Shown here in pieces: positions 13,784-55,371 of a stretch of 58,913 bases of DNA. Made by a program: the position numbers and the translations under genes. Within the stretch, counting starts at the first letter, position 1, and every line of letters begins with the position of its first letter. Source of the stretch: a virus (lineage: Duplodnaviria > Caudoviricetes); IMG/VR virus record IMGVR_UViG_3300017747_002695, positions 1 through 58,913 of that record. One strand, written 5' to 3'. The notes beneath the pieces are model-generated. The model was not told where the DNA came from. It was given only the letters and a program-made list of their open reading frames with translations, and did no database searches.

Positions 13784-14431
13784 ATGTTGAAGAAACTTGG
13801 ATTGTCTGTATTTGCTTTAATTGCTGCTAGCGGTATTGCTATTGCTGGTGGTGCTTTTATGAACTTCCCCGGAGTTGGTGTTACTGCAAATACTAATTGC
13901 ACCAGTTATGGTAACAATGGTGTTTGCAATCAGTATCAGCCTGCTGGTCCTACTTTCCTACAGGGCACTGAAACTTTTCCTGCTGATACGAACTATGTAA
14001 ATCCGCAGGGGGCTACTGTTCAGCCTTATACTGTTACTATTCCTACTAACTTGTTTGGTGGTGGTTACGGTAATACTACAGTTGCTTCTACCACTGGTAC
14101 TACTGCCGCTGTTGTCGCTGCTGATGGAGTTGGCACCTATATTTATACTGGCGCTGGTACTGCTACTTATACTTCGTTTAAATTTCCTGCTAATCCTTTT
14201 ACTAATCAGAAGTTCTGTTTAGTTAATGCTGGAACTGGTGTTCTCACTCTCACTGCTGTTGCTGCTTCAGCTAACACTTTTGGTAATACTCCTACAGTTG
14301 TTGGTGTAACCCCTACTAGTGTTCCTGTGCAGACTGCTGTTGGTACTGCTGGTACTGTTACTCTTGCTACCAATTGCTGGTCTTATGTCGCTGGTGCTAG
14401 CAACACTGGTATTTGGTATCGCGTACTGTAA
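13784..14431 (+). CDS. Signal-peptide-bearing beta-rich putative virion protein
   Basis: MLKKLGLSVFALIAASGIAIA leader; T/G-rich; 4 Cys. Confidence 0.6.
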   Translation: MLKKLGLSVFALIAASGIAIAGGAFMNFPGVGVTANTNCTSYGNNGVCNQYQPAGPTFLQGTETFPADTNYVNPQGATVQPYTVTIPTNLFGGGYGNTTVASTTGTTAAVVAADGVGTYIYTGAGTATYTSFKFPANPFTNQKFCLVNAGTGVLTLTAVAASANTFGNTPTVVGVTPTSVPVQTAVGTAGTVTLATNCWSYVAGASNTGIWYRVL

Positions 14432-14914: not shown

Positions 14915-15571
14915 ATGAAGATGAAAAATATTTTAATTTTGGGGCTGCTCTTAATTTGCCCACAATTAGCATTTGCTCAGACTAGTCGTAATCCATGTTA
15001 TTTAAATGGGCAGCAAAGTACTAATGGTATCCATAGTTGTGAGAGTGTAAGTCAGTTAAAGCCGCTGCCTATAACAGGTAATAGTAACATACCTACTTAT
15101 AGTTCAACTATTCATAACTTTGCAAATAGTTCTGCTGGAGATATTTTTTGTATATCTGGTAGTGCTACTAAAATTATAAAAATTAAAGGAATTAGAGTTA
15201 GTGCTATAGCTAGTGCGGCTGTAAATAGTAGTGTGTCTGTTGTTCGCAGATCAACTTTAGATACTGGTGGTACACCTACTTCTGTAACTCCTGTACCTAG
15301 TGATACTTTAAATTCTGCTGCTACTGCTGTAGTCACAGGATACGCCACTGCTCCTACAGCAGGAACTTTAGTAGGAAGAATTAGAGCACAAAAATTGCCA
15401 ATTGGTACAACTACATCTACTTCTATTTCTCCTGCTCCTGCATTGTTTCAATTTAGTCCTTATTGGGATCAACCTCAAGTTTTACGAGGAGTTAACGAAG
15501 CTTTATGCATTGATGTTGATAGTACAGCAGGCGGGAATTGGGAAGTTGATATTGAGCATACAGAAGAATAA
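14915..15571 (+). CDS. Signal-peptide-bearing putative virion protein
   Basis: MKMKNILILGLLLICPQLAFA leader; 4 Cys in mature part. Confidence 0.6.
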   Translation: MKMKNILILGLLLICPQLAFAQTSRNPCYLNGQQSTNGIHSCESVSQLKPLPITGNSNIPTYSSTIHNFANSSAGDIFCISGSATKIIKIKGIRVSAIASAAVNSSVSVVRRSTLDTGGTPTSVTPVPSDTLNSAATAVVTGYATAPTAGTLVGRIRAQKLPIGTTTSTSISPAPALFQFSPYWDQPQVLRGVNEALCIDVDSTAGGNWEVDIEHTEE

Positions 15572-24882: not shown

Positions 24883-25378
24883 TTGATTTGCTCCATCAGT
24901 TGATTTCAATACCCTACACGTCATATAAAACTAAGTCAACACCTAATTCAATCAACAATAGGAAATAAAAATGGCTATCACTGCTTTTCCCGGTCCACCT
25001 GATCTTATTGTACCTTTTGAGCAAATGGTAACTGATGGGATTAATATCAATGTCAACCCTTGGACTGTAGAAAATCCTCATCCGGGTTTTGGCAAAGACC
25101 CTAATATTCTGAATGAATACGGCCACACTGAATACCCAATGTGGGTTGATAATCCGAATGGTTCGCTAGATGCTAGCGGTAAGCCCAATCGTATTATTGT
25201 GGGTAGCAAGGAAGAATACGAGGCCCTGCAACCTAAGGCTCCACCAGCATGGCCAAAGTAACAAAAGAGCAGGAAGAAGAATTTAAACGTCGTTTTAAAC
25301 GTACAGACGATATTAAATTTAAAGAATTGCTAAAAGATAAATTAAAAGCCTTCCTCAAAGCAACGGATGATAAATGCG

Positions 25379-26410
25379 ATGGCGACGGCTAGAGAATTTA
25401 TTGAATTGTGCCTTAGAGAAACTGGTGTTACTGGTGTAGGACAAACGCCACTTGATCAAGACATTAATGACGCCTTCACTATTTTAAATCGTATGTTGGC
25501 GCAGTGGCAAAAGAAGCGTTGGCTTGTCCCTAATCTTATTGATGTAGCAGCTTTAGGGAATGGCCAGCGCTCTAATCCTATTGGTCCCGGCGCGTATTAT
25601 AATGCTGCGCGTCCTGATAAAATTCAAGCTGCCTATTTTAAACAGCTAGCCCCGGGTGGTGGTTTTAGCGATGGTTTTAGCAGCGGTTTTGATATTAATG
25701 GGCAATCTAATAATGTTAGCTATCCTTTAAGGCCAATATGGAGCTATGAGGACTATGCTAATAAAATTCAATTAAAAAATTTAACCACATGGCCTACGTA
25801 TTTTTTCTATGATGCTGCTTTTCCTTATGGGAACGTTTTTATATGGCCTATACCTACAAGTCAGTACGAAATTCATCTAATATTAAAAGGACCAATAGGC
25901 TTCACTGTTGAATTAAAAACTGGGTCTATTACTTCTCAAGGCTTTGGTTATACTGATGGAGTTTACCAAGCTATACCATTTATTAATGTTAGTAGTTTTG
26001 GCTCTGGAGGCTCAGCCAATATTACTATTGTTGGCGGGGCTATCACTAATGTTGAAATTCAAAATCCCGGCGATGGATATAAAATTAGTGATGTTCTTAG
26101 CTTAGACAATACTTTAATTGGCGTAGCTGGCCAAGGATTTATTTGGACCGTCACTAATGTTCAATCATCTTTAGATGCTGAATTTAATATGCCTCCTGAA
26201 TATGAAGAAGCTATCCACTACAATCTTTGTATTCGTCTTACTGCACACTATCAATACGATCCTAATCCAGTGCATGGAAAACTTGCATTTATCGCACTAA
26301 ATACTATTAAAGTTTCTAATACTCAAATATCTCAATTGCAGATGCCTTCTAGTTTACGTTTTGGCGGCAATGGTGGCTTTTATATATTTAATGCGGACCA
26401 AAACCAATGA
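25379..26410 (+). CDS. Head-tail adaptor, P22 gp4-like, with inserted beta domain
   Basis: MATAREFI..L...GV...GQ...D..DAF..LN.ML.QW; [12 protein letters not shown]. Confidence 0.75.
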
Positions 26411-28116
26411 AATATCTTTTAGTGTTGCTTCTATTATTTGTGGGAACTCAAGCAAATGCGGCTTGTACAACTCCATGCTCTCAGTCTCAATTGTTGATTG
26501 ATATTAATACTAATTGGGCAGATAATAATAATAATAAGATTACACCAACGTTATTACGTTCACCTGTTATAGAAATTGTAAATACTTATTTTGCATTATT
26601 AGCTCAGTTTCAAATTCCTTTAAATACTATCCCTGTTGGTAGAGGGGTTGGTGTTAATGGATTTGATAGCGCTACTATAGCTTCTCCATTAGTATTGAAT
26701 AGTGGAATTCTTAGCTGCCCTACTTGTGGAGCTGGAAGCGGCTCTGTCACTAATGTGTCTGTAGTTGCAGCTAATGGCTTTTCCGGTACAGTTGCTACAG
26801 CAACTACTACTCCAGTCATAACATTGAATACTACTGTTACAGGTTTGACTAAAGGTAATGGCAGTTCCTTATCTGCTGCTGTTGCTGGCACTGATTACCA
26901 AGCTCCTATATCGCTTACTACCACTGGTACTAGTGGTAATGCTACGTTTGTGAGCAATACTTTAAATATCCCACAATATTCCACTGCCCCGGGTGGAAGT
27001 ATAACCCAACTTCAGTATAATAACGGAGGAGTATTTGGCGGTATTACAGGAGCTACTACTAATGGAACAGCTTTAACTTTAGTGGCTCCTATTCTTGGTA
27101 CTCCAGCTAGCGGCAATCTTATTAATACTACTGGCTTTCCTATTGCTAATCTAGATGGTGCTGGTACTAGCGTGTTAGCTGCTTTAGCTATTAATGTTGG
27201 TTCTGCTGGTGCACCTGTTCTATTTAATGGCGCTGGTGGTACTCCATCTTCTATGATAGGAACTAATATAACTGGCACTGCTGCTGGATTAACAGCAGGT
27301 ACAGCTAATGCAGTTGCTGTAGGTAATATATCTGGAGCAGGTTCTGGTTGTATTACTTGGCTTACTACTCCAACTTCTGCTAATCTTCGTGGATGTTTGA
27401 CCGATGAAGTTGGTACAGGAGCAGCTTATTTTGTTGGTGGAGCATTAGATACTCCAGCATCAGGGACAGCTACAAATTTAACAGGACTTCCTTTATCTAC
27501 TGGAGTAACAGGAAATCTTCCTGTTACCAATTTAAATTCTGGTATTAGTGCTAGTTCATCTACATTTTGGCGTGGAGATGGTACATGGGCAACCCCTGCT
27601 GGTGGCGGTACAGTTACTAGTGTTACTTGCTATGGTGTAGCTATAACATCTTCTGGTACTTGCGCTACTACTGGTCAAACGCCGGGGATAGCATCTAACA
27701 CTGCTGCTACGGCTGGTAACGTAGGAGAAACAGCATCATTTACTGCTGCTGATGGTTCAATTTCTATCGTAACTTCTACTGCAAAAACCATAACTAGTGG
27801 CAGTCTTACATCTGGAGATTGGGACATAAACGGTGTAATTTGTTATAGTGGAGACGGAACAACTAATACTTCTTATTTAGGAGCTTCTATAAGCCAAACT
27901 ACCAATACAATGTCAACCACTATGGGTCAGTACAATAAGCAGACGTTGGTTAGTTTATTAACTTATTCAGTAGCTCCGGGTCGTTGGTGTATAACTGTAC
28001 CTCAATTTCAAATTTTATTAAATTCCACTACCACAGTATACTTGATAGCAGAAGCTACTTTTACTGGTGGAAATACTGTTGCTGGTGGAAATCTTTTTGC
28101 TAGAAGGCGTCGTTAG
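26407..28116 (+). CDS. Tail fibre-like protein with signal peptide
   Basis: [42 protein letters not shown] fibre motifs; [18 protein letters not shown] leader. Confidence 0.75.
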
Positions 28117-29565
28117 ATGCGAGTTGAACTCTTAAGCTCAGCCTATGATGGCAAATCTATTATCGCTTCTGGACAGGAGCAGGTAAATCTTTATGAAGAA
28201 ATAAATGCTGATGATCCTCAAGCACCTACCAAAATAACTTATTACACTACTCCGGGTACTGAAATTTATGCTCAAAATACAGAATATATTTTCAATGCTA
28301 GAGGAGCATATCGCACTAGCATAGGAACTGCCTATTATGTAGTTTCTCAAAACGTTTACAGTGTCGGTATAGATGGCACACTTACAGTAATCGGTATTAT
28401 AGCTAATAGGCCAAGTCTAATTAAATTTAAGGATAACGGTTTAGTTGTAGTTTTAGTAGATGGGGTAAATGGCTATGTTATTGACATGGTATCAAATAAT
28501 TTTGGTCAGATAACTGATCCTAATTTTTATGGTGCTAGCTTTGTTGAGCTGCTTGATACTTTCTTTATCTTTAATCGTCCTAATACTAATCAATTCTATA
28601 TCAGTATATCTAATGCTGATTTTACCTTGCTTACTACTACTGGCGCATTTGATCCATTAGATATTGCAGCTAAGTCAGGTTTTAATGATCCTATTGTGGG
28701 CATCACTGCTGTCCATAGAGAGCTTCAATTGATAGGTAATCTAACTACTGAGATATGGATTGGCACTGGTGCTGCTGATTTTTATTTTCAACAGCAGCAG
28801 GGAGCTTTTATAAATCATGGTTGCGCCGCTCAATACTCTATAGCGGCAATGGATGTTTTAGCTTTCTTTATTATGCAAGATCAGCAAGGAAACGGAATTG
28901 TAGTTCAATTACAAGCTTATGATGTAACTGAAATATCTACTCCTAGAATAGTATCTGAATTTAAAAGTTATGTTACTTTAGAAGATGCTATAGGATTTTG
29001 TTTTCAAATTGGCGATCATCCATTTTATTGTTTAGTTTTTCCAACAGCTAGTAAAGGTTGGATGTATGATCTGACTACTAAACGTTGGAATGAATGGAAT
29101 TGGTGTGATAGCAATGGCAATCTGTTGCGTCCTAGAATTAACTGCTGCATGTTTGCATTTAATAAAATATTAGGTGGTGATTGGGAAAATGGCAAACTAT
29201 TACACTTATCTTTAGATTTATATAAGGATGAGGATCAGCCTATTGTATGGATCAGAACTTTTCCACATATGACTAATAACAACGAAAAAATAACATATAA
29301 CAGTTTTGACTTAGATATCACTGTAGGAACTATAGAGGATCAAGAAGATAATCCTTTAGTTAGCTTATCTTGGTCTAATGATAAAGGTAAAAGCTATGGA
29401 AATCCAGTCATGCAGTCTTTAGGAAAGACAGGAGACTATATAGCTGTTCCATCATGGAATAGATTAGGTCAAGCTAGAGATAGGGTTTTTAAAGTTAGTG
29501 GATCAGCTAATATGCAAATGGCTCTAAATGGCGCGTTTATTGATTTTAAAAGGTCAAAGCATTGA
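28117..29565 (+). CDS. Tail hub, P22 gp10-like
   Basis: VNLY, YTTPG, TTEIW, YD..TKRW, LSWSNDKG..YGN, WNRLGQARDRVF. Confidence 0.85.
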   Translation: MRVELLSSAYDGKSIIASGQEQVNLYEEINADDPQAPTKITYYTTPGTEIYAQNTEYIFNARGAYRTSIGTAYYVVSQNVYSVGIDGTLTVIGIIANRPSLIKFKDNGLVVVLVDGVNGYVIDMVSNNFGQITDPNFYGASFVELLDTFFIFNRPNTNQFYISISNADFTLLTTTGAFDPLDIAAKSGFNDPIVGITAVHRELQLIGNLTTEIWIGTGAADFYFQQQQGAFINHGCAAQYSIAAMDVLAFFIMQDQQGNGIVVQLQAYDVTEISTPRIVSEFKSYVTLEDAIGFCFQIGDHPFYCLVFPTASKGWMYDLTTKRWNEWNWCDSNGNLLRPRINCCMFAFNKILGGDWENGKLLHLSLDLYKDEDQPIVWIRTFPHMTNNNEKITYNSFDLDITVGTIEDQEDNPLVSLSWSNDKGKSYGNPVMQSLGKTGDYIAVPSWNRLGQARDRVFKVSGSANMQMALNGAFIDFKRSKH

Positions 29566-29867
29566 GTGTAGTACCAAACCTATTAGCTGCTTTAGTTGAT
29601 AAGATGGGAAAAGTTGTTCCACCTTGGAATAGCTTTTTTCAACAGTTTACTGCTCCTGCTAAAGCTGCTGAAACACCTATCAGTCCGTACACTCCTAATA
29701 CACAAGGTAGTATTTTTTTCATTACAGGTACGCCAGCTATAACTTTGACTAGAGGCAGTTTAGTTTTGACGCTGACTGGGCAAAAGATAATTCCTATAGC
29801 TGTTGGTGATACTATAACTTGGTCTGGTGCAACCACAGTTCATTTTTTGAGGGCATTTTCGCAATGA
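29562..29867 (+). CDS. Small tail-associated protein
   Basis: LVD..G....PW..FF start; follows gp10-like gene. Confidence 0.5.
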   Translation: MSVVPNLLAALVDKMGKVVPPWNSFFQQFTAPAKAAETPISPYTPNTQGSIFFITGTPAITLTRGSLVLTLTGQKIIPIAVGDTITWSGATTVHFLRAFSQ

Positions 29868-30313
29868 AAAATATTGTGAGCATTAATGACTATGTAGATG
29901 CAATCAGGGCTAAGACATTTGAAGCTGAAGCATTAATGAAAACTATGCCTCAAATAGAATTAAAAGTTATTCATCATTTTTCTAAAGGGGTATATGCTCG
30001 CGAGTTACATATTCCGGCTGGCGTCACCTTGACAGGGGAAATTCACAAATTTGAAAATTTAAATATTCTCTCTCAAGGAAGCATGTTAGTCTCTACTGAG
30101 AAGGGGGTCATTCGCGTTGACGCTCCTTTTACAGTCGTGTCGCCACCCGGTACTAAGCGAATTGCCCACACTTTAACTGACTGCATTTGGACTACAATTC
30201 ACGGTACTGATGAAAAAGATGTATCATTAATTAAAGATCATTTTATAGCTAGCTCTGAGCAAGAATGGTTAGAGTTTACTGGAGCTAACCAATTACAATT
30301 AGGATTATCATAA
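29864..30313 (+). CDS. Cupin-like phage protein
   Basis: HHFSKGVYARELHIPAG..LTGEIHK...SPPGTKR...WTTIH. Confidence 0.65.
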   Translation: MKNIVSINDYVDAIRAKTFEAEALMKTMPQIELKVIHHFSKGVYARELHIPAGVTLTGEIHKFENLNILSQGSMLVSTEKGVIRVDAPFTVVSPPGTKRIAHTLTDCIWTTIHGTDEKDVSLIKDHFIASSEQEWLEFTGANQLQLGLS

Positions 30314-30972
30314 TGGCATGGGTGGCAACAGCAGTTATAGGCGCTGGCGTTATAGGTGCAGCGTCAACTGCTTATAGTGCTAATAAAGCTGCTGATGCTC
30401 AAACTGAAGCATCTAATAAAGCTTCACAAATAGCTCAAGATCAATATCAACAAACTCGTGCTGATTTATCTCCTTATCGTGATATAGGCTCACAAGCTTC
30501 TACTGAATTGAGTGGGAGGCTTTCAGAACTTACTAGCCCTATTACTATGGATCAAGCTACACTAGAAGCAACTCCAGGTTATCAATTTAACTTAAATCAA
30601 GGACTAAAAGCTACTCAAAATAGCGCAGCAGCTAGAGGACTAGGTACATCAGGAGCAGCTTTGAAAGGAGCGTCTACTTTTGCTACTGGACTTGCTGATA
30701 GCACATATCAAAATCAATTTAATAATGCTAACACCAATCAGACTAACGCATATAATCGTTTGAAAGGCTTGGTTGATACTGGAGCTAGCGCTGCTACTGG
30801 TACTGCTACTGCTGGTACTGCTGCTGCTAACACATCTGCTACAGCAGCAACTCAAGCTGGCACTGCGCAAGCTGCTGCTGATAATAAGACTGGAAACGCT
30901 ATAAGTAGTTTAGCTAATAATATAGCTGGATATGCTACTTATAAAGGTTTATATGGCACTAAAGCTGCTTAA
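30313..30972 (+). CDS. DNA ejection protein, P22 gp7-like
   Basis: LSPYR, PGYQF...QG...SAAARG..SGAALK. Confidence 0.8.
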   Translation: MAWVATAVIGAGVIGAASTAYSANKAADAQTEASNKASQIAQDQYQQTRADLSPYRDIGSQASTELSGRLSELTSPITMDQATLEATPGYQFNLNQGLKATQNSAAARGLGTSGAALKGASTFATGLADSTYQNQFNNANTNQTNAYNRLKGLVDTGASAATGTATAGTAAANTSATAATQAGTAQAAADNKTGNAISSLANNIAGYATYKGLYGTKAA

Positions 30973-30984
30973 GGATTTAGAATT

Positions 30985-32352
30985 ATGGCTGAGCTTGGCG
31001 GATTTAGCGTAGATAGTTATAAAATGCCTGTTGAAAAATCTCCTGTTGAGATTGCTAAGCAGTATGGTGATATTCAACAGCAAAGCCAACAAATAGATCA
31101 AGCTAAATTAAATCAAGCTAATCAGGGCTTAACTTATATGACAAGAGCTATGGGGGCTCTTGGCCCTAATGCTCCTAAAGAAGCGTATATTAAAGCTGCT
31201 GAAGATGCTGTTAAGCTTGGGTTAGTTCCTCCTCAAGCTGTGCAAGTCTTTGCTCAAAAAGCGCAAGCTGCTCCTACAAGTAAAGCTTTCTATGATGAGT
31301 TCATGACTACTGCTGCCGATCATCAACAGCAAATCAATTATCATATTGGCCAAAATACAACAGTACAAGACAATAAAAGTATCACTCAAGGCGTTACTAG
31401 GCCAGCTAGTCAAGGCGGAGGGTTTGTTCCAGCAACTAAAATGCCAATACAAATCGCCCCCGGAACTCAAGGCTATAACTCAGCTAATCAGCAGGTGTAT
31501 GAGCAACCTGAAGGCCCTCCCGGCGTGGTTCCTGCCACTCCTGCGGCTCAGCCAGCGCGTTCTATGCCTGTCGCTCCCTTGGCGTCACCTGCCCCGACTA
31601 CAGGGCCTATAGGGCCTACCGTGGAAACGACAGGAGGGCCTAATGCTCCTCCTGCTACTTTTGCTCAACGAACTGATGCTGCTTTCCCTAACAAGCGTGA
31701 AGTTTTAACCGCTGGGCCTAGCCCTTTATTCCCTGAAGGTAAGGAAGCTTATACGAAGGATCAGCTTTCTGCATCTGGTAAGGCTCAGGCTATCAAGCCA
31801 GCTATTCAGGCATTAAAGCTAATGCCGGGATTAGCTACAGGTCCGGGTACAGAGCAGTTTAATAATTTAGTAGCTGCTGCTAAGGCATGGGGCATTGTTG
31901 ATACTAAAGCTGAGAATGACCCTACTGTGTTACGTCAAGAAATTAATAAAAAGATGGCTCAGTATGTTGCCAGTAGTCCGATTGGCCAACGTTCGGATGC
32001 TGCTCAAGCTTTGACTGAAGCCAGCTCGCCTAATCCTAAAGTGCAGTTGACGCAAGCATTACAGGCGCTAACTCGCGATGCTGTTGCATTAGATCGTGTT
32101 AACATTTTAAAACCGCAAGCGTTTAAGGGTAGCGATTATCAAAACTATATCAAGCATCAGGGGACATTCCCACAAAACATTGATGAGAAAGCTTTGACGC
32201 TTGATATGCTTGATGAGAAATCGCGTAATTCTTTAGTACAGAAAATGGCTAAGCAATACCGCGATGGTAATGCTGGCGAGAAAAAGATTGCTGACAAGTT
32301 CTTAGAAACTTTAAAGCTCGCTAAAGAAAACGGCATTTACGAGGGTATGTAA
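30985..32352 (+). CDS. Putative DNA ejection protein
   Basis: Gene order after gp7-like gene; A/Q/P-rich helical sequence. Confidence 0.55.
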   Translation: MAELGGFSVDSYKMPVEKSPVEIAKQYGDIQQQSQQIDQAKLNQANQGLTYMTRAMGALGPNAPKEAYIKAAEDAVKLGLVPPQAVQVFAQKAQAAPTSKAFYDEFMTTAADHQQQINYHIGQNTTVQDNKSITQGVTRPASQGGGFVPATKMPIQIAPGTQGYNSANQQVYEQPEGPPGVVPATPAAQPARSMPVAPLASPAPTTGPIGPTVETTGGPNAPPATFAQRTDAAFPNKREVLTAGPSPLFPEGKEAYTKDQLSASGKAQAIKPAIQALKLMPGLATGPGTEQFNNLVAAAKAWGIVDTKAENDPTVLRQEINKKMAQYVASSPIGQRSDAAQALTEASSPNPKVQLTQALQALTRDAVALDRVNILKPQAFKGSDYQNYIKHQGTFPQNIDEKALTLDMLDEKSRNSLVQKMAKQYRDGNAGEKKIADKFLETLKLAKENGIYEGM

Positions 32353-34253
32353 TGGCTGAGTTTAATATTGATGAAGTGCTAGGCCAATTTGGCCAAAAGT
32401 CTGCTGCTCCTAAGAAGGGTGGTTTTGACGTTGATAGCATTTTGTCTCAATTTGGTGGTAGCGAGCCTAAAGAACCTGAGCGTACCAAAGTCGTCATTCG
32501 ACAGCCTAAGCCTCCTATCTCTGGAATTTCTCAGGAAAGCTCTGATGAATTAAATCAAACTCGCGCTGAAAAAACTGGTGGTGAAAATCCACGTTCTATG
32601 TTGCCGCGTACTAATGTTGTAGAAAGTGTAGTCGATAATTACAAATCAGGCTTAAGCACTGCTACTGAAGGCTTAAATGATTTAGCATCTAACAAACCTG
32701 CCTCTGGTGTGGGTAAAGTCGCGCTTGGTTCTCTGTCTGCTTTAATTTCTCCTGTCACTGGAGCTGTCAAAGGCGGCTTGTCTACGCCTATTACTGATAT
32801 TACTGGTAGCAAAGAGATTGGCGATAGGGCAGGTGATGTAGCTTTAAGTGGTATTCCTTTTATTAAAGGAGCTAGCACTGTAGTTAAAAATTTACCTAAG
32901 AATAAAGCTTTGTCTACTTTAGTAGAAAGCATTGGTCCTGAAAATTTACCTGAAGTAGTGCGAGCTATGAAAGCTGACCCGCGCTTAGGACCGGCTGATT
33001 TATCGCCTAAAGTTTTACAAGATACTCAAAGCTTGTTTACTACTGAAGGTCCGCAAATCGATTATCTGGCTAAAACTTCTGGTAACAGAATGGCAGGCAG
33101 AAGCGATGCAATGGCTGCTGCTTATGATACTTCAGGTGGCGTGGCTCCTGACTTAGCTCAGAAGATGACTGATTTAGCCAGCGCTGCTAAGGATGTTGGT
33201 AGCAAGAAAATTCAACCTGCTTTAGACGCGGCTAAGCCTGTTAGTGTAGAAAATACATTAGATATTTTAGATAGCACTTTAAAACCCGGCTCTTTAAAAA
33301 TTGGTGACGCTGAGCATTTAGTTGATATTAAGCGACAGCTTGATAGCATTCGCAAGCAATTGCGTACTAGTAAAGAATATGATGCTAAAGAGCTTCATAG
33401 GTTTCAATCTAAGTTGCGTGAGACCGCTACTCGTTTAATGAAAAGCTCTACCGGCTCTGATCAGGCTATGGGTGGCGCTTTGATGAATGTCAGAAACAAC
33501 CTTGTATCTGACATTGAAAAGGCTGCTCCCGGTTACAAAGAAGCTTTGTCAGGCTATCGCGATGAGATGCACATAGCCGAAGCATTCAAGCGTGGCCATG
33601 ATGACATCTTCACTAGCTCTAAGAAAATTGAAAATGATCCGTCGTTCGTAAAGAAGTGGTATGATGGCTTAAGCGATTATGAAAAGCAAGCTGCTACAGA
33701 AGGTGCTAGAGCTGCTATATATACTGAGATGGGGGTTGCTAAAAATCCGGCATTAGCTGGCGAAAGCATCGCACGTTCTGATTTTAACAAAGCTAAAATG
33801 GAAGTATTATTTGGTAAAGATGAGACTGAAAAACTTTTAACTAAACTTGCTAATGAGCGAGCTATAGCTAATACCCACAATAAGATTGTTGAGGGTAGCC
33901 AGACTGCTATGCGCCAAACTTCTAAAGCTCAGTTTGCTTTGCCTAGCCCAACTGAAGTAATGAAAAGCGCTCCTGCTGTAGCAGCGGCTGAGGCTTCTAG
34001 CTATTTCATGGGTGGTATGCCGGGTGTTGGTGCTGGGCTTTTAACAGCAGCAAAAGTTGGCGCATCTGTAAAAGATGCTGTGAAGATGAAGCTAGCTCGC
34101 GAACATAATGCACGATATGCTCAGTATGCTTTACCAACTGAAGGTCCAAGTAGAGATGAACTAATCAGGCAACTTGAAGCTCGTATACCCGGGCCTAGGC
34201 AATCTCTGCTCACTCGCGGGGCTAGCGGCATTTCTAGGCTTGTAGGACCATAA
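32352..34253 (+). CDS. Putative large DNA ejection protein
   Basis: Gene order; helical; conserved-looking GSQTA near C-terminus. Confidence 0.55.
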   Translation: MAEFNIDEVLGQFGQKSAAPKKGGFDVDSILSQFGGSEPKEPERTKVVIRQPKPPISGISQESSDELNQTRAEKTGGENPRSMLPRTNVVESVVDNYKSGLSTATEGLNDLASNKPASGVGKVALGSLSALISPVTGAVKGGLSTPITDITGSKEIGDRAGDVALSGIPFIKGASTVVKNLPKNKALSTLVESIGPENLPEVVRAMKADPRLGPADLSPKVLQDTQSLFTTEGPQIDYLAKTSGNRMAGRSDAMAAAYDTSGGVAPDLAQKMTDLASAAKDVGSKKIQPALDAAKPVSVENTLDILDSTLKPGSLKIGDAEHLVDIKRQLDSIRKQLRTSKEYDAKELHRFQSKLRETATRLMKSSTGSDQAMGGALMNVRNNLVSDIEKAAPGYKEALSGYRDEMHIAEAFKRGHDDIFTSSKKIENDPSFVKKWYDGLSDYEKQAATEGARAAIYTEMGVAKNPALAGESIARSDFNKAKMEVLFGKDETEKLLTKLANERAIANTHNKIVEGSQTAMRQTSKAQFALPSPTEVMKSAPAVAAAEASSYFMGGMPGVGAGLLTAAKVGASVKDAVKMKLAREHNARYAQYALPTEGPSRDELIRQLEARIPGPRQSLLTRGASGISRLVGP

Positions 34254-34362: not shown

Positions 34363-36099
34363 ATGAAAGCTATCATCAATTCCATTGTTAAAACTTTCGT
34401 TATTTCTTTAATGCTTATTGCTAATACTTCTTTTTCTTATGCTCAGACGGCAAGCATACTCCCACCCGCAAAAACTCAGCTTTTTGATAGTAATGGAAAT
34501 CCGCTGGCTGGTGGCAAAGTCGATTACTACATTCCCGGCACTACCACTCGCAAGACGACTTGGCAAGACGCTGGCCAGACTGTCCCTAATGCTAACCCTG
34601 TTATTTTAGATAGCGCTGGCCGCGCGCTCATGCTTGGCGATGGCGCATACCGCCAAGTTGTCAAAGATCGTAATAATAGTTTAATTTGGGATGCTGTAAC
34701 TAGCTCTACCGGATCAGGAGGAGGAGGTTCAACTGCTACAGTTGGCGATGGCCAACCTGTTGGGTCTATACAATTATGGGCAGGATTAATAGCCCCTCAA
34801 GCTTATGCTTTTGCATACGGGCAAGAGTTTACTAGAGCTGGTTTTCCTGAATTATTTCAAGCTTTAACGCTTAATCAAAATGTCACTTGCACTATAGGAA
34901 GCCCAATATTAACTAGTGTTAGTAGCACTCAAAATTTTAGTACTGGAACTAAGATTGAAAGTGTTTGTTTAGGTGCTGGGGCTACAGTAATTTCAGTGAC
35001 ATCTTCTACTGTCACAGCTAGCTCTAATGCTATTATTTCTACTACTTCTACCGCTAGATTTTTTCCTTATGGGAACGGTGACGGAAATTTAACTTTTAAT
35101 GTTCCTGATTTAAGAGGTAGAATTTTAGTTGGGCGCGACGATATGGGGGGAATAGCTGCAAACCGTGTAACTTCGTTATTAAGTGGTTGTAGCGCAGGAA
35201 TTGGCGGTACTTGTGGCACTCAAAATCAAGATATATTGCAATCACAACTACCAAATGTAGTTATACCTTTCAGTAGTAGTAGTGGTTCAGCCAGTGTTAC
35301 TACTACTAGTAGTCGTATTTTTCAAAGCAATAGTGTTAATGGAATTATAAGTCCCGGTGCTGGAGCAATATTTGCTGTTGCTGGTATTGATGCTAATACT
35401 AGTGCTGTTTCATCTACAGGATCAGCTAACGCGTCAGGTAATACTAATTCTATTAATGGTAATGTTACTCAAGTAGGGCTGAATATGATGCAGCCTTCAC
35501 TAATTAGCAATTATGTTATTAAAACTACTCCAGATAGTAACCCAAATTCTTTTTTTGGCGTCGCATCCATTGGAGGAATGTATGGAGTATTAACTTGTGG
35601 ATCAGGAATATCATGCTCAGGAAATCAAATATCTGCTAGTCTAACAGGTACTATTTCTTGTGGAGATTTGACTAATGGGGGTACAGGCTGCCAAGCGAAT
35701 ACTGGCGCATCAGGTCATGTTGTGCCTTTCTTAGATGGTATTAATATATTCTCAGGAACCAGTAACACTTTCACCAATGGCATTACTGTATCTAATGGTT
35801 CTGCTTATTTATTAGCTAATGCTTCAGCTACTCCGGGGCCTGCTGTCGATACAACAATACAAGGTTTAACTTTAAAAACTCCAATTGATGCTAACAATGA
35901 TTATATGCTTTTATGGGATAATGTTAGCGGAGCTTTAAGAAAAGTTACACCGGGGCAAATTGGTTCTGTTGGTGTAGCTGGCGTATCTAGCTTGGGCGGA
36001 CAGACAGGGTCTCTAACTTGCGAAAATGGCGTAACTTGTGTTAGTGGGTCAGTCAGTATCAGTCTGTTGCCACTTTATTCAACTTTAGGAGGAATTTAA
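34363..36099 (+). CDS. Tail fibre/tailspike with head-binding and tail-collar domains plus signal peptide
   Basis: QLFDSNGNPLAGGKV.YY.PGTTT...NPVILDSAGRA; collar PVGSI...TFNVPDLRGR; leader ending FSYA. Confidence 0.85.
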   Translation: MKAIINSIVKTFVISLMLIANTSFSYAQTASILPPAKTQLFDSNGNPLAGGKVDYYIPGTTTRKTTWQDAGQTVPNANPVILDSAGRALMLGDGAYRQVVKDRNNSLIWDAVTSSTGSGGGGSTATVGDGQPVGSIQLWAGLIAPQAYAFAYGQEFTRAGFPELFQALTLNQNVTCTIGSPILTSVSSTQNFSTGTKIESVCLGAGATVISVTSSTVTASSNAIISTTSTARFFPYGNGDGNLTFNVPDLRGRILVGRDDMGGIAANRVTSLLSGCSAGIGGTCGTQNQDILQSQLPNVVIPFSSSSGSASVTTTSSRIFQSNSVNGIISPGAGAIFAVAGIDANTSAVSSTGSANASGNTNSINGNVTQVGLNMMQPSLISNYVIKTTPDSNPNSFFGVASIGGMYGVLTCGSGISCSGNQISASLTGTISCGDLTNGGTGCQANTGASGHVVPFLDGINIFSGTSNTFTNGITVSNGSAYLLANASATPGPAVDTTIQGLTLKTPIDANNDYMLLWDNVSGALRKVTPGQIGSVGVAGVSSLGGQTGSLTCENGVTCVSGSVSISLLPLYSTLGGI

Positions 36100-36101
36100 A
36101 T

Positions 36102-36602
36102 ATGCGTATTATTTATATTATTTTAAGTTTTTTATTTAGTATTATTATATCAAACGCTAATGCTCAAACCCTAAATTCATTTTACGCTCCTACTATTCCT
36201 AATATGGGGCAGCAAAGCTGGGTACAAGGCACTGACGCCCCAAGTGTCGCTAAAACTATTTATACCGGAGCAGCCAGAGGTTCTAAATGCACAGGTTTAT
36301 ATTTGACATCTAGTGATGGGACAACTTCTCATATATTTACTGTATTTTTAACTTCACCTACATCTACTGGTATTTCAGGAGCAGCTTTAGCTGTGACTAT
36401 TCCTTTAGCTGCTGGATATATCATAAATACTCCCGCCATAGCTCCTATGAGCGCTACATTGTGGCCGGGATTACCAACAGATAGCGATAATAATCGTTAT
36501 TTTTATCTTCCTAGTGGTTGGAGTTTAAAAGGTTATTATATAACCGCACTAGGTTCAGGAGCAATTATAAACGCAACAGCCATTTGCGCGGATTTTAACT
36601 AA
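36102..36602 (+). CDS. Signal-peptide-bearing tail-associated protein
   Basis: MRIIYIILSFLFSIIISNANA leader; 2 Cys. Confidence 0.6.
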   Translation: MRIIYIILSFLFSIIISNANAQTLNSFYAPTIPNMGQQSWVQGTDAPSVAKTIYTGAARGSKCTGLYLTSSDGTTSHIFTVFLTSPTSTGISGAALAVTIPLAAGYIINTPAIAPMSATLWPGLPTDSDNNRYFYLPSGWSLKGYYITALGSGAIINATAICADFN

Positions 36603-37519
36603 TGAAAAATTTAATTATAATTTTTCTTTTAATAACAACTTCAGCTTTTTCGCAAACTCCTATGCCGGGTATGAGAGGTCATGCTAATAGAAATACCCCT
36701 TATCCATTAATGGCTATAGGAGGTCAAGGAGAAACAGGAGGTTTACAAGTAACTAATTTAAATCCTACTACTTGTGGTCAAGGGGTTTCGTTTGGTTCTC
36801 CTACTGATTGTGGAGTAGGTAGCGGTCTATATCAATGGACTGATGTAGACGGTAATGCTACCAAACCATTAAATGGATCACTTTTTAACTATCGTGTAAA
36901 TAGTGGATATTACGCTCTCGGGTTTCCAACTTTTGTTGGTGGGAATTTCGAATTACAAGTAAACGATAATGCTTTTGCTGGCAATGATTTATGGGCATTG
37001 CTAGGAATTTTAGATTTACAAGGTACGTCAGGTAATTTAGGAGGACAAGCAACAGCAGGTATTATTCGTGGGAATTTGAGTGGAGGAGGTTTAGCCGCAG
37101 GCATACGTTCGCAAGCTGAAAATTACTCTGGTCGTGCTGGATTTGGAATAATAGTTGGTTCTAGCCAAACTGATGGTGCAGGGCTTCCTTTTGATAATTC
37201 ATATGATACAGGATTAGCAATAGAGGATAGCCATACCTACGGCATCACCATTTGTCAAACAGGTCATATTTGCCCGGGAATACCAATACTTGTGCGCAAT
37301 GGTACTGGCGCAGCGTTAATGCAAGTTGATGGATTAGGAGGATTAAAAGTAGGAGATAATAATACTACTGGAGCAGTACCAACTTGTAACGCTGCTGCTA
37401 CAGGCACTTTCTATTTTGTAGTAGACGCTACTAGTGTTTCTTATCATGCTACATATGCTGGTGGAGGAAGCGGTAGAGTTGCTATTGTATGTACAGGATC
37501 GATATGGATAGTAATATGA
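36602..37519 (+). CDS. Signal-peptide-bearing putative receptor-binding protein
   Basis: MKNLIIIFLLITTSAFS leader; C-terminal VPTCNAAATG..Y.V.DA...GGGS..V...CTGSIW tip-like domain; 6 Cys. Confidence 0.6.
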   Translation: MKNLIIIFLLITTSAFSQTPMPGMRGHANRNTPYPLMAIGGQGETGGLQVTNLNPTTCGQGVSFGSPTDCGVGSGLYQWTDVDGNATKPLNGSLFNYRVNSGYYALGFPTFVGGNFELQVNDNAFAGNDLWALLGILDLQGTSGNLGGQATAGIIRGNLSGGGLAAGIRSQAENYSGRAGFGIIVGSSQTDGAGLPFDNSYDTGLAIEDSHTYGITICQTGHICPGIPILVRNGTGAALMQVDGLGGLKVGDNNTTGAVPTCNAAATGTFYFVVDATSVSYHATYAGGGSGRVAIVCTGSIWIVI

Positions 37520-37749
37520 AAAAGATTTTAATACTAGCTATTTTAATTGTAAACACTAGCGTAAACGCAGCCACTATAACTATAACGCTATCTGACGATG
37601 AGCAAAAAGGATTAATAACTTTATTAGATCAAGCAGTCAGAGCTGAAGGACTTCAAGTAGCCGAACCTGCATTATATTTATTTAAAAGAATACAACAAGA
37701 ACAAAAAAAAGCTATTAAAGAAATTAAAGAACAGAAAGGTGATAAATGA
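37516..37749 (+). CDS. Small helical protein with signal peptide (possible fibre chaperone)
   Basis: MKKILILAILIVNTSVNA leader; LITLLDQAVRAEGL. Confidence 0.5.
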   Translation: MKKILILAILIVNTSVNAATITITLSDDEQKGLITLLDQAVRAEGLQVAEPALYLFKRIQQEQKKAIKEIKEQKGDK

Positions 37750-38276
37750 CTATATTACCTAAACAATATGCATGGCTGGTTAAAGAAACTGGCCCTAAAA
37801 TGATTGTAGAAGCTTTAAAGCTCTATGGAACTGTTGAAGTAGCTGGTACTAAAGATAGCCCTATTATTTTAGCTTGGGCTAAGTCATTGAAGCTTACTTC
37901 TATATACTCTCATGATAGCATCCCATGGTGCGGATTATTCATTGGTTATGTAGCTTTACGTGCAGGCAAGCCGGTAGCTCAGTCTCCATTGTGGGCATTG
38001 TCTTGGGCGGACGAAGGAACTGCGATAAAATTCCCCATGCTTGGCGATATTTTAACTTTTAAGCGTGACGGCGGCGGTCACGTTGGGCTATACGTTGGCG
38101 AGGACGCGACCGCTTATCACGTCTTGGGAGGTAATCAATCTGACCAAGTTTGTATTACCCGTATTCTTAAGTCACGTCTCTACAAAGCGCGCCGCCCTAA
38201 ATACATCAATCCTCCAAAAAATATTAGACGTATTTATTTAAATAATAATGGTGTTATTTCAACTAATGAAAAGTGA
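37746..38276 (+). CDS. Endolysin, TIGR02594/NlpC-P60-like
   Basis: DSIPWCGLF, ALSW, GDI..F.R.GGGHVG.Y, VLGGNQSDQV. Confidence 0.85.
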   Translation: MTILPKQYAWLVKETGPKMIVEALKLYGTVEVAGTKDSPIILAWAKSLKLTSIYSHDSIPWCGLFIGYVALRAGKPVAQSPLWALSWADEGTAIKFPMLGDILTFKRDGGGHVGLYVGEDATAYHVLGGNQSDQVCITRILKSRLYKARRPKYINPPKNIRRIYLNNNGVISTNEK

Positions 38277-38285
38277 GATTTAAAT

Positions 38286-38600
38286 ATGGCTGACAACACT
38301 GCTAGTATAACTAACCCACTTCAAACTAACAATTCAGCATTAATGGTTGTTGGTTATGTAGCTGGTATTCTTGCTGCTAAATTACCATTTTTTGATTTTG
38401 CTACTTGGAATTATTTAATTCTCAGTGCTGGCGGAACTATTATGGTATTAGCTACAGCTATTCTTAATAGAAAGTCTGCTGTAGTTGCTACAGTGGCTAA
38501 TATGCCTGAAGTTAAGAGTGTTGAACTTGATAAGAAAGTTATTGGTTCTGCCGCTCTTGACGCGGCTACTCCTGACAATGTAACAGTGAGCGCAAAATGA
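38286..38600 (+). CDS. Putative holin
   Basis: Two hydrophobic segments; follows endolysin. Confidence 0.55.
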   Translation: MADNTASITNPLQTNNSALMVVGYVAGILAAKLPFFDFATWNYLILSAGGTIMVLATAILNRKSAVVATVANMPEVKSVELDKKVIGSAALDAATPDNVTVSAK

Positions 38601-39013
38601 AAAAACTTTTACTTATTCCCACACTTATAGCCTCTTTGTATCTAGGTGGTTGTACTACTCCATTTGGTACCTTTACTCAGAAGATACTGACGACTGGTGT
38701 TGCTAATCCTGTTGGCAATGATACTTTAGCTGGCATTATTAGTTCTTATGGTGTAACTCAAACAGCAGCTATCGCTTATATGAACCTTCCTCGTTGTACT
38801 AAAACTAACAATTTTTCTGCTACTAATATTTGTTCTAAGCGATCGGTTAAAGTTGTGATACAAGCTGCTGATGAAAATGCTAGCTCTGCTATCAATGCTG
38901 CTGTTGAATTCACTCGTGCTAATCCAACTCTAGATGCTACTGCTGTATTGACTGCGGCTAGTAATGCTGTAGATACTTTTAATAAGCTAGCTATTCAATA
39001 TGGAGTTAAGTAA
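38597..39013 (+). CDS. Lipoprotein (spanin-like position)
   Basis: Lipobox LGGC after MKKLLLIPTLIASLY. Confidence 0.65.
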   Translation: MKKLLLIPTLIASLYLGGCTTPFGTFTQKILTTGVANPVGNDTLAGIISSYGVTQTAAIAYMNLPRCTKTNNFSATNICSKRSVKVVIQAADENASSAINAAVEFTRANPTLDATAVLTAASNAVDTFNKLAIQYGVK

Positions 39014-39276: not shown

Positions 39277-39546
39277 GTGGACTTACTGCTAGAGATTGTA
39301 AAAGGTTGGGGTCCGCCGGGTGCACTCGCGTTATTAATGTGGGTGATGCTCAAGAAATCAGAAGAACGCGAAGCTAAAAAAGATACTCGCATACAACTAT
39401 TAGAAAATCAATTAATAGAAAGCTATGATGAGAGAATATCCGCCGCTGATAGAATGAGCGACGCTATACACTTATCAGCAAATGCAGCAACAAACGCAGC
39501 CAAAGCCCTAGATGGATTGGCTCATGAAGTTAGGGCTAAGTCATGA
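39277..39546 (+). CDS. Membrane-anchored coiled-coil protein, lysis region
   Basis: N-terminal hydrophobic helix then coiled coil. Confidence 0.45.
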   Translation: MDLLLEIVKGWGPPGALALLMWVMLKKSEEREAKKDTRIQLLENQLIESYDERISAADRMSDAIHLSANAATNAAKALDGLAHEVRAKS

Positions 39547-47636: not shown

Positions 47637-48275
47637 TTACCTAGCTCCCCAAGGCGGGGTATTGCCAGCAGGAGCACCCCCGCCGGGTTGCCATGGCTGA
47701 CCGCCAGCAGGAGGCTGCTGTTGCTGTGGCTGTTGCTGAGTGACTTGAGGCTGGCCACCAGCTTGTGGCCAAGCGCCGTTTTGCTGAGCTACCATAGGCT
47801 GCACTTGAGGCTGTACTTGCTGTTGTGGCTGAGCTTGAACTTGTGAAGCCTTACCCGGTTCATTACCGCCAAGATCATACACCTTCTTAAGCTCAGTGTA
47901 GCCACCAGCAGGCTTCTCAGGAGTAGGTTCTTCGCCCTTCTGATAACCAACGTCAATCAAGCATTGAGCACCACGCAAAGCAGCACCTTCATTAGTCCAA
48001 TCAATTTGAAAACGCTGAGTAGCATGGCAAAGTGCAGAAAGTTGGCCATGAGCAATTTCTACAGCCTTTGGCGTTTTGTTCCAAACGTTATAGCGGTGAA
48101 TTTGAGTACCCATAGGGGTAGTAAATTCAACTTCAAAAAATCCACCATCCTTACTAGCATTTTCTTTAATTGCTGTTCCAGTAATAGTAGCCTGAGCTTT
48201 ACTAGCTGGAGGATGGCCGCTCATACCCTGATTAGGCTGATACTGCTGAGCGTTGAACGAACCTGACATCTGCAT
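47637..48275 (-). CDS. DUF669-like single-stranded DNA-binding protein
   Basis: YNVWN...AVEIA..QLSALCHA; Q/P-rich tail ending PPW. Confidence 0.75.
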   Translation of the reverse strand: MQMSGSFNAQQYQPNQGMSGHPPASKAQATITGTAIKENASKDGGFFEVEFTTPMGTQIHRYNVWNKTPKAVEIAHGQLSALCHATQRFQIDWTNEGAALRGAQCLIDVGYQKGEEPTPEKPAGGYTELKKVYDLGGNEPGKASQVQAQPQQQVQPQVQPMVAQQNGAWPQAGGQPQVTQQQPQQQQPPAGGQPWQPGGGAPAGNTPPWGAR

Positions 48276-49405: not shown

Positions 49406-49599
49406 TAAGCTGTTTCCCAACGCTTAAGCGCGTCCATAGCATTAAGCTCTGGTACAATCTGATTGCTATACTGTCCTTGTGTAGCATGAGCAATCAACCT
49501 GATTGAACACCACATTACTATAGATTTTGGTAGACGCCATGCAATAAAAATTAAAATCTTTTCTTTCATCACTTCTTTCCCTTCTTCGCTTTCGGCTCC

Positions 49600-52927: not shown

Positions 52928-52943
52928 ATTGGATATTTAAATT

Positions 52944-55364: not shown

Positions 55365-55371
55365 TAACTAG

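Follow-up and report, generated by a model that had tools for sequence, protein, structure and literature searches.

Assembly of tailed phages is, in the textbook description, wholly cytoplasmic, and a run of genes with secretion signals at a tail-fibre locus raises the question of whether the host-recognition proteins of such a particle are folded in another compartment. The locus lies in the genome of an uncultured, short-tailed, P22-like podophage, which is complete at 58.9 kb and constitutes the window, i.e. the whole stretch of 58,913 nucleotides that was analyzed; all genes written below as start..end are on the + strand. Four consecutive genes, coding for a tail fibre (34363..36099, 578 aa), a small jelly-roll protein (gene B, 36102..36602, 166 aa), a fibre-like protein (gene C, 36602..37519, 305 aa), and a 77-aa polypeptide (gene D, 37516..37749), had been predicted to carry Sec-type leaders, and their N-termini proved to be as described. 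A strict, home-made rule, combining a basic n-region, an uncharged hydrophobic core, and a small-x-small motif, flagged 10 of the 77 open reading frames of at least 70 aa in the window: these four, the genes at 13784, 14915, and 26407, a lipoprotein gene at 38597, and two weak hits at 45343 and 57487. According to this rule, the features of a Sec substrate of signal peptidase I (a core of about 8–18 residues, small residues at −3 and −1, and no lipobox Cys at +1) were present in the first seven, as had been anticipated, while the portal, coat, gp4-like, gp10-like, and three ejection proteins were not flagged, also in agreement with the original prediction. When seven leader genes were placed at random among the 77, at least four fell in a row in 0.18% of 200,000 permutations (p 0.002). 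Applied to two cultured podophages with a related gp10, the same rule flagged 4 of 52 and 1 of 43 open reading frames, none of them a large tail protein.

The fibre starts with MKAIINSIVKTFVISLMLIANTSFSYA, and the predicted cut is followed by QTAS; for the other three proteins, the predicted cuts (marked by a slash) are SNANA/QTLN (36102), TSAFS/QTPM (36602), and TSVNA/ATIT (37516). The start codons are coupled to the preceding genes or well equipped for translation: TAATG, ATGA, and ATGA overlaps are found at 36602, 37516, and 37746, and a Shine-Dalgarno sequence AGGAGG precedes the start of 36102. As to whether the true starts might lie downstream of the leaders, no in-frame start was found between leader and mature part in 34363 (the next being Met90), 36102 (Met35), or 37516 (none at all). 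In 36602, however, Met21 and Met24 immediately follow the predicted cut, and a leaderless isoform of this protein is thus possible.

The fibre consists of a leader (aa 1–27, nucleotides 34363–34443), a head-binding domain (about aa 39–115), a Phage Tail Collar domain (about aa 130–258; PF07484, 43.2 bits against a Pfam gathering threshold of 24), and a Cys-paired shaft. The head-binding domain, which had been recognized directly behind the leader, was confirmed at both the sequence and the fold level: phmmer aligned residues 39–105 with residues 11–80 of PDB chain 7eeq_A (E 1.3e-4), while Foldseek retrieved 9vyg_o (E 1.2e-5, rmsd 2.3 Å), 7eeq_A (E 3.8e-5, TMt 0.63), and the P22 gp9 N-domain (8eb7/1lkt, E 4e-3 to 9e-3). 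It thus has the same fold as, and detectable sequence similarity to, the N-domains of P22 gp9, Sf6 gp14, Pam1 7eeq, and Pan3 9vyg. In the AlphaFold2 model, residues 2–21 form a helix, pLDDT falls below 50 at residues 22–34, and it reaches 82–92 over residues 40–115. Since the head-binding domain of solved podophage tailspikes begins about 10 residues from the N-terminus, the 27-residue Sec-type leader of the fibre is an addition to it; the Tail Collar domain and the shaft with conserved Cys pairs likewise set this protein apart from the solved tailspikes. Neither phmmer nor a profile built from residues 28–135 of the fibre detected a second head-binding domain in the window (six-frame open reading frames of at least 40 aa), so that 34363 encodes its only protein with this particle-binding module. 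The gene follows the ejection-protein genes in a genome with a gp4/gp10-type hub, as in P22-like and cyanobacterial podophages, and this order is kept in 8 of 8 relatives. The fibre itself is short, its 578 aa comparing with 794–1247 aa in six complete fibres of close relatives.

The leader is a conserved addition, the domain behind it having none in solved structures. It is encoded in all 120 fibre homologues listed, 103 of which carry it complete by the strict rule; eight further leaders are full-length and break the rule, and in the remaining nine, the called start lies inside the leader, whose end is kept. Among these listed matches, position −1 is Ala in 105 and position +1 is Gln in 111 of the 119 that could be anchored; A, S, G, or C occupies −1 in all 119, and −3 is small or aliphatic. 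The pattern of the hydrophobic core is kept, while its sequence varies. PF07484 is a precomputed annotation of 119 of the 120 listed homologues, and many contain depolymerase-type β-helix domains (PF13229, PF12708).

The mature Cys counts that had been given for the four proteins (10, 2, 6, and 0) were confirmed, as was the local nature of the pairs in sequence; the mature parts of 13784, 14915, and 26407 contain 4, 4, and 10 Cys, respectively. In the fibre, the pairs are 176/202, 276/284, 412/418, 433/443, and 553/559, and across 40 sequences, C176, C202, and C418 are invariant, while C412 is present in at least 90%. The mature parts of the listed fibre homologues have from 4 to 22 Cys, the number being even in 111 and odd in 9 of 120, compared with an even count in 61 of 150 Cys-containing leaderless virion proteins of the same phages.

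A sharper comparison was provided by gene B (leader aa 1–21; Cys63 and Cys162), whose AlphaFold2 model (pLDDT 90.1) matches jelly-roll folds and whose family comprises 217 cluster representatives at E ≤ 1e-3. The family occurs inside tail-fibre modules in both leader-bearing and leaderless forms. An even Cys count of at least two was found in 67 of 69 leader-bearing members and in none of 59 leaderless ones; of 70 leader forms, 49 and 48 have Cys in the columns of Cys63 and Cys162, respectively, as opposed to 1 and 0 of 59 leaderless forms. The leaderless members start with MAVT, aligned exactly with the residue predicted to be +1 after cleavage. Neighbouring proteins have leaders in 35 of 52 cases next to a leader-bearing gene B and in 1 of 53 next to a leaderless one; leaders are therefore a property of whole fibre modules. 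In 22 gene B loci (GC 0.38–0.62), 56 of 65 leader proteins have an even Cys number of at least two, five an odd number, and four none, while the 131 leaderless proteins divide into 47 even, 53 odd, and 31 without Cys.

The expectation that leaders would covary with Cys pairs among homologs was thus strongly borne out, and the relatives of 26407 point in the same direction. The pattern, consisting of even numbers, conserved pairs, and their loss in leaderless relatives, is of the disulfide type, and the exceptions without Cys are two of the 69 leader-bearing gene B members and gene D. The association is nevertheless not independent of descent: on a FastTree tree of the mature parts, the leader state changes 16 times, only four contrasts fall on supported branches, and the sign test on these is under-powered and not significant (p 0.25). 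The disulfides could also form after release in oxic water.

The identity of the two downstream genes is less uniform than the description of four tail genes had implied, which holds only in part. Gene C (leader aa 1–17) has local Cys pairs 58/70, 218/224, and 262/297, and only two homologues were found, one of which (P0124) has a leader and a C-terminal part matching tail and tail-fibre PHROGs. Its look-alikes in the atlas (HylP, phage-tail trimerisation, and S74) are leads only. Gene D (leader aa 1–18, with a helical-looking mature part of 59 aa) cannot be called a tail gene on its sequence because a single homologue was found in 5.8 billion proteins; Pfam, PHROG, and NCBIfam gave no match. 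Its ATGA start overlaps the end of gene C, and its stop codon overlaps the ATG of the endolysin-like gene. This position and its size fit a periplasmic holin regulator of the T4 RI type, with no match to such a family in the same three collections. None of 8 close relatives possesses 36102, 36602, or 37516, and these three may therefore be accessory genes.

Three further leader genes lie elsewhere in the window. The second fibre protein (26407..28116, 569 aa; leader aa 1–18) has its ten mature Cys in five local pairs and matches the tail-fibre family phrog_11393 (E 1.4e-9). Its gene is inserted between those of the gp4-like and gp10-like proteins, where it is absent from 8 of 8 relatives. Leaders were found in only 3 of 80 relatives, and these three are rich in Cys (0.8–2.1 per 100 aa vs a mean of 0.25); its central repeats have 563 relatives. 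Two leader-bearing, β-rich proteins are encoded before the large terminase gene, one in the gap that precedes it (13784..14431) and the other just ahead of it (14915..15571). Among five complete relatives, blastp detected a leader-bearing homologue of the former in all five, and a separate genome search in three; homologues of the latter occur in three, the leader being retained in G002 and G004. The hub is leaderless: the gp4-like head-to-tail adaptor (25367..26410; phrog_637, Ad3, E 3.5e-10) is part of the structure on which P22-type head-binding domains dock, and the gp10-like hub protein (28117..29565; phrog_578, Hc3, E 1.6e-92) is 61–83% identical in 34 related loci. A conserved leaderless protein (29864–30313) matches "short tail fiber" and "tail fiber adhesin" PHROGs, and therefore not every fibre-annotated part has a leader. 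Behind gene D lies a lysis region composed of an endolysin-like gene (37746..38276; phrog_1259, E 1e-26; phrog_9589 endolysin, E 1.3e-6; TIGR02594, 100.3 bits against a cut-off of 70.55), whose product lacks both leader and membrane segment; a holin-like gene (38286..38600), named from its position and from two hydrophobic segments read by eye, with no family match in Pfam, PHROG, or NCBIfam; a lipoprotein gene (38597..39013; lipobox LGGC, a lipoprotein in relatives too), which is a candidate for the outer-membrane spanin; and a candidate inner-membrane spanin gene (39277..39546), suggested by an N-terminal hydrophobic segment followed by a helical part, with homologues 65–68% identical in relatives.

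Because secretion signals and paired Cys occur together, the host-recognition proteins of this phage probably fold elsewhere than in the cytoplasm, the site of assembly for the remainder of the particle. That the leaders are real export signals we consider very likely, and periplasmic disulfide folding of the proteins bearing them likely. If so, 34363, 36102, 36602, 26407, 13784, and 14915 would be made late, pass unfolded through SecYEG guided by working Sec/signal peptidase I signals, and be cleaved behind the small-x-small site, which in most cases would leave Gln as the first residue. Folding, and presumably trimerisation, would follow in the oxidising periplasm, with the local Cys pairs of these proteins becoming disulfides, while heads containing portal, gp4-like, gp10-like, and ejection proteins would be assembled in the cytoplasm without fibres. 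Once the holin had breached the inner membrane and lysis had been completed by the spanins and the leaderless endolysin, the two pools would mix, and the head-binding domain of the fibre would dock on the gp4/gp10 hub. Purified P22 tailspike docks on tailspike-less particles in vitro; on the other hand, joining after lysis must compete with dilution, and we know of no tailed phage that assembles via exported fibres joined after lysis. We infer translocation, cleavage, disulfide formation, and the identity of the exported pool with the virion pool, and the arming of particles by that pool at or after holin triggering is the more tentative part, to which we give slightly less than even odds. For the reading as a whole, i.e. 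a Sec-exported fibre set that acquires disulfides in the periplasm and joins heads at lysis, we estimate a probability of about 0.5.

Other explanations account for parts of these data. The fibre might be the only one of the four proteins in the virion, 36102, 36602, and especially 37516 being exported accessory genes (morons, or genes aiding lysis, for instance through a periplasmic holin regulator) located by chance between fibre and lysis genes. The absence of all three from close relatives agrees with this, as do the single homologue, lack of Cys, and overlap with the endolysin-like start of gene D, and the generic jelly-roll of gene B. We nevertheless find it doubtful, given that the gene B family sits directly behind large fibre-like genes in leader-bearing and leaderless phages alike, that the sole full-length homologue of gene C has a tail-fibre-type C-terminal part, and that the shortness of the fibre fits a receptor-binding function split over downstream genes. 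An exported superinfection-exclusion or moron role (of the Llp, Lom, or SieA type) was rejected for 34363 and 26407 in view of their head-binding, collar, and fibre-repeat regions; for 36102 and 36602, the evidence on this point, from PHROG matches and neighbourhoods, is weak. It is also conceivable, though unlikely, that the exported pool acts in the envelope, where it could keep receptors masked or destroy them, shut out superinfecting phage, or help release by loosening surface polysaccharide, while particles are armed in the cytoplasm by a fraction escaping export, either precursor or the product of an internal start. The β-helix domains of many fibre homologues, Met21 and Met24 of 36602, and the precedent of cultured phages whose tail genes adjoin genes for exported products (T5 llp, lambda lom) would suit such a double use. 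However, 34363, 36102, and 37516 offer no start for a leaderless form, an uncleaved hydrophobic leader would sit on the hub-docking domain, and it is with the leader that the Cys pairs, and so the form under selection, are associated.

A role of the N-terminal hydrophobic segment other than export in vivo, as a structural or membrane-active element of the virion fibre, strikes us as quite improbable; the segment might, e.g., plug the hub, anchor the fibre at the inner face of the membrane while particles are being assembled, or enter the host membrane as a helix on infection. Left uncleaved, eighteen helices of this kind would form a ring around the tail tip, and the modeled helix of the fibre is free; yet the small-x-small site is kept in all anchored homologues listed, the core sequence varies freely beside well-conserved hub proteins, leaderless gene B members start exactly at the cut, and the same type of leader is found on unrelated neighbouring proteins. 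Nor does a virion role give a reason for the link with Cys pairs. Finally, that the hydrophobic N-termini arise from wrong starts or composition is scarcely credible: the home-made rule is crude and yields a few false hits, but the conservation of the leader in the listed homologues, the coupled start codons, the run of four, and the family- and neighbourhood-wide contrasts all speak against it.

The use of host secretion by phages has precedents. In filamentous Ff phages, g3p and g8p are leader-bearing virion proteins that the host exports or inserts before assembly, and g3p acquires disulfides in the periplasm; inoviruses, however, assemble at the membrane and are extruded, whereas the present phage is tailed and lytic, with head-full-type, cytoplasmic capsid assembly. 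T5 Llp and lambda Lom and Bor are exported accessory proteins encoded next to tail genes, and some endolysins are Sec- or SAR-routed (unlike the leaderless one found here). These tailed-phage proteins use host Sec, and some adjoin receptor-binding genes, but none is the particle's own receptor-binding fibre, while 34363 has a docking domain. Our literature search found no description of exported, leader-bearing tail fibres. In Porphyromonas gingivalis phages, Sec signal peptides, several exposing Gln after cleavage, were reported on major capsid proteins, spanins, and five genes of unknown function, and were interpreted as marking modifiers of the host surface (Matrishin et al. 2023, PMC10367356); in contrast to 34363, tail fibres are not mentioned in the passages of that report covered here. 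The mosaic adhesive trimer fibres of Bdellovibrio (Caulton et al. 2024, PMC10769870) are phage-fibre-like proteins that a Gram-negative cell produces to serve beyond its cytoplasm, but they are encoded by the bacterium, for the predator cell's own use, and do not belong to a virus particle.

Taken more broadly, the data allow us to propose, only tentatively, a two-compartment route for tailed phages, in which heads and hub are cytoplasmic and a Sec-exported, disulfide-locked receptor-binding module is joined at the holin breach. It would recur in many unrelated uncultured lineages (GC 38–62%) and be switched on or off for a whole fibre module through the joint gain or loss of leaders and Cys pairs. 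The gene B family offers one protein in two versions, one with leader and paired Cys and the other leaderless and Cys-free, so the question is directly testable by expression. For annotation, a leader and paired Cys on a fibre gene are no reason to call it non-structural. If the proposal is true, fibres of such phages could be neither expressed nor engineered in cytoplasmic form, the Sec, signal peptidase, and Dsb functions of the host would count among host-range and resistance factors, and lysis timing would be part of virion maturation.

The 58,913 bases of the window carry direct terminal repeats at their ends and make up one complete virus record. PHROG matches identified its late region as a P22-type podophage module with large terminase (15576-17042), portal (17199-19550), scaffold (21728-22657), coat (23448-24695), a gp4-like adaptor (25367-26410), a gp10-like hub (28117-29565), and three ejection-type genes (30313-34253). 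These are followed by four consecutive genes starting at 34363 (the fibre), 36102, 36602, and 37516, each with a predicted Sec-type leader, and then by an endolysin-like gene (37746), a holin-like gene (38286), a lipoprotein gene (38597), and a spanin-like gene (39277). Genes of the GIY-YIG/NUMOD3 homing-endonuclease type were found at 6554-7081 and 22661-23305; the latter sits between scaffold and coat, and its homologues are placed elsewhere in relatives. Cultured relatives are distant: among 50,697 phage records, the gp10-like protein reached at most 38% identity, the DNA of the region matched Flavobacterium phages alone, over 114 nt of the endolysin-like gene, and the fibre was matched in its collar part alone. 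IMG/VR yielded 34 related loci with a gp10 identity of 61-83%. A scan of genome contigs revealed no gp10 relatives, and a scan of genome contigs with the fibre alignment A1 gave nothing beyond Tail Collar domains, which occurred in many phyla.

The original prediction was that the four genes form an exported tail-fibre module. Their N-termini and the numbers of Cys left after the predicted cut (10, 2, 6, and 0) were exactly as it had described, and the mature Cys of the leader genes are arranged as sequence-local pairs. Leaders were called with a strict home-made rule that flagged 10 of the 77 window ORFs, namely all seven genes named as leader-bearing in that prediction (these four plus 13784, 14915, and 26407), the lipoprotein, and two weak matches; none of the portal, coat, gp4-like, gp10-like, and ejection proteins, said to lack leaders, was flagged. 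Given seven leader genes among 77, a run of four has a permutation probability of 0.002. Two cultured podophages whose gp10 is related served as a control; the rule picked out 4 of 52 ORFs in one and 1 of 43 in the other, and no large tail protein was among these. We also looked for true starts downstream of the leaders, and the leader-encoding ATGs proved to be the real ones, as indicated by upstream AGGAGG and stop overlaps: 36102 starts two bases past the fibre stop with AGGAGG upstream, and the starts of 36602, 37516, and 37746 overlap the preceding stops (TAATG, ATGA, and ATGA, respectively). No in-frame start suited to a leaderless product was found for the fibre (next Met at residue 90), 36102 (Met35), or 37516 (no Met), and in 36602, Met21 and Met24 directly follow the leader. 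A Pfam search of 20 further window proteins revealed no phage-encoded Dsb, thioredoxin, or Sec helper.

Gln occupies position +1 in four of the seven window leaders, and Gln after the cut is presented as a Bacteroidetes trait in Matrishin 2023 (PMC10367356). The same residue was found at +1 in 22 of 65 leader proteins from unrelated loci (L266-L287) with a GC content of up to 0.62. Bacteroidota seldom use the Shine-Dalgarno motif, and the Bacteroidota host that Gln at +1 had prompted us to consider is weakened, since the core motif is present in 31 of 66 window genes versus a background of 8%. These two host signals are in disagreement.

The head-binding domain that had been proposed behind the fibre leader is borne out by sequence and fold alike. 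Over residues 39-105, the fibre resembles the Pam1 cyanophage tailspike head-binding domain (7eeq, E 1.3e-4), and its residue 39 aligns with residue 11 of the 7eeq chain. The AlphaFold2 model consists of a free helix (residues 2-21), a low-confidence linker (22-34) that contains the predicted cut, and a confident domain (about 40-115) that can be superposed on tailspike N-domains from Pan3 (E 1.2e-5, rmsd 2.3 Å), Pam1 (TM 0.63), P22, and Sf6. Next comes a Tail Collar domain (43.2 bits, cut-off 24). Apart from the fibre, no docking domain was found in any window ORF of at least 40 aa in all frames, and therefore the sole protein expected to dock on the gp4/gp10 hub carries a leader. Past residue 258 the monomer model is of poor quality, and we therefore draw no conclusions on the fibre shaft. 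At 578 aa the fibre is short, given that the six complete fibres among eight relatives examined measure 794-1247 aa. Its Cys412/Cys418 motif (35590-35640, residues about 400-425) is repeated as Cys553/Cys559 (36010-36060, about 545-570), and the protein ends soon after this second Cys-x5-Cys copy. We infer that such a short fibre fits a receptor-binding function split across the downstream genes.

Fibre homologues numbered 273 at E ≤ 1e-3, and the figures given here cover the 120 listed. A complete leader was called by the strict rule in 103 of these 120, while in eight the leader is of full length but violates the rule with a charge near the cut or a Met at -3, and in nine the called start lies inside the leader, the end of which is kept. 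Of 119 listed homologues, 105 have Ala at -1 and 111 have Gln at +1. Their hydrophobic cores vary freely in sequence, as signal peptides evolve and unlike a helix packing against a conserved hub. A leader-bearing fibre follows the third ejection gene in all eight related loci. The mature fibres hold 4-22 Cys, an even number in 111 of the 120 listed homologues; in the control, Cys-containing leaderless virion proteins of the same phages, the count was even in 61 of 150. Among 40 aligned homologues, C176, C202, and C418 never vary and C412 hardly does. As to neighboring structural genes, the gp10-like hub has 5-9 Cys of random parity, and Cys is absent from two ejection-type proteins (30985-32352 and 32352-34253) and from the product of 29562-29867 in all 62 near-full-length homologues (L002-L035). 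The gene at 29864-30313, at the position of the P22 needle and accessory genes, encodes a leaderless conserved 149-aa protein matching the PHROGs 'short tail fiber protein' (E 5e-39) and 'tail fiber adhesin', with an even Cys count in 8 of 26 relatives, i.e. random parity.

The proposed co-variation of leaders with Cys pairs was examined in the 36102 family. Pattern scans of IMG/VR for relatives of 36102 and 36602 gave none; wider protein searches did find relatives, and an exhaustive HMMER search of the 36102 family returned 217 cluster representatives, 150 of them listed. After 19 fragments or fusions and three unclear cases had been set aside from these 150, there were 69 members with a leader and 59 without. 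The expected co-variation was indeed observed: an even count of at least two Cys was present in 67 of the 69 leader-bearing members (exactly two in 56) versus 0 of the 59 leaderless ones (31 have none, 27 one, and one three). The Cys63 column holds a Cys in 49 of 70 leader forms versus 1 of 59 leaderless forms and the Cys162 column in 48 of 70 versus 0 of 59, and the leaderless proteins start MAVT.., in line with the residue predicted after the cut. In a FastTree phylogeny of the mature parts, the leader state changed 16 times; four contrasts fell on supported branches, none in the wrong direction, and since a sign test on so few was not significant, common descent may be part of the signal. 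The 36102 model is a confident jelly-roll (pLDDT 90.1) with generic structural neighbors, among them cyanophage proteins labeled virion-structural, a phage cement protein, and Bacillus proteins of the spore appendage and exosporium. A tblastn of two family proteins (P0127 and P0172) against the 50,697 phage records gave no match. Profile A4 had none in five Bradyrhizobium genomes or 401 sampled same-phylum genomes, searches that show little because they lacked a positive control. Gene 14915 was rejected as a paralogue of this family, as hhalign aligned the leaders alone (probability 21%). One uncultured phage (L268) has two leader-bearing jelly-roll genes of the 36102 type (892-1386 and 4369-4872), both adjoining leader-bearing fibre-like genes.

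Leaders are switched on and off together across whole fibre modules. When neighbors of at least 100 aa on the same strand, at most two per side of the 36102-family gene, were counted in IMG/VR loci, leaders were found in 35 of 52 in 16 non-redundant loci with a leader-bearing family member and in 1 of 53 in 17 loci with a leaderless one. In locus L267, a homologue of the window fibre with a leader and 12 Cys lies directly upstream of a family member. Across 22 loci with a GC content of 0.38-0.62, 56 of 65 leader proteins have an even number of at least two Cys (five odd, four none); for the 131 leaderless proteins of the same loci, the counts are 47 even, 53 odd, and 31 none. Relatives of 26407, the second fibre, follow the same pattern less strongly: leaders occur in 3 of 80, and these three hold 0.8-2.1 Cys per 100 aa versus a mean of 0.25. 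The leader-bearing 26407-28116 itself lies between the gp4-like and gp10-like genes, which are adjacent in all eight related loci; this suggests that it was recently inserted into the tail-hub operon.

Genes 36102, 36602, and 37516 are missing from all eight relatives examined, some of which (L033; G004) have other leader-bearing genes in their place, and the gap ahead of the terminase in relatives also holds leader-bearing genes. In a close relative (G001 47800-55369, L204), six consecutive leader-bearing genes precede the terminase region, four of them with 10, 8, 8, and 2 mature Cys. Two homologues of 36602 were found, the full-length one bearing a leader and an end part that matches tail-fibre PHROGs; the Atlas look-alikes are fibre-like and serve as leads only. 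Gene 37516 has a single homologue and matched no family, and it may belong to the lysis genes. The cultured Rhodoferax phage P26218 has, between its large tail genes and its lysis genes, a gene (L289 15489-15998) whose 169-aa product carries a textbook leader ending AQA|Q and retains two Cys after the cut. This gene was not among the tblastn matches of two 36102-family members against cultured-phage records, and it may offer a cultured handle on exported genes at this position.

In the literature covered, we came upon no account of tailed-phage fibres with Sec leaders, and nothing relevant was found in PMC3556154, PMC3765740, and PMC5587285. The nearest report (Matrishin et al. 2023, PMC10367356) concerns Porphyromonas phages, in which signal peptides are described for capsid, spanin, and unknown genes. 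On the simplest account, the leaders are functional, and the fibre module would be exported and would fold with disulfides in the periplasm. It may have a dual role in the envelope, or the particle may be armed by an unexported fraction. That the exported pool is itself the one that ends on the particle is suggested by the fibre being the only docking protein and by the selected form being the Cys-paired one, and we put this at somewhat under even odds (about 0.4).
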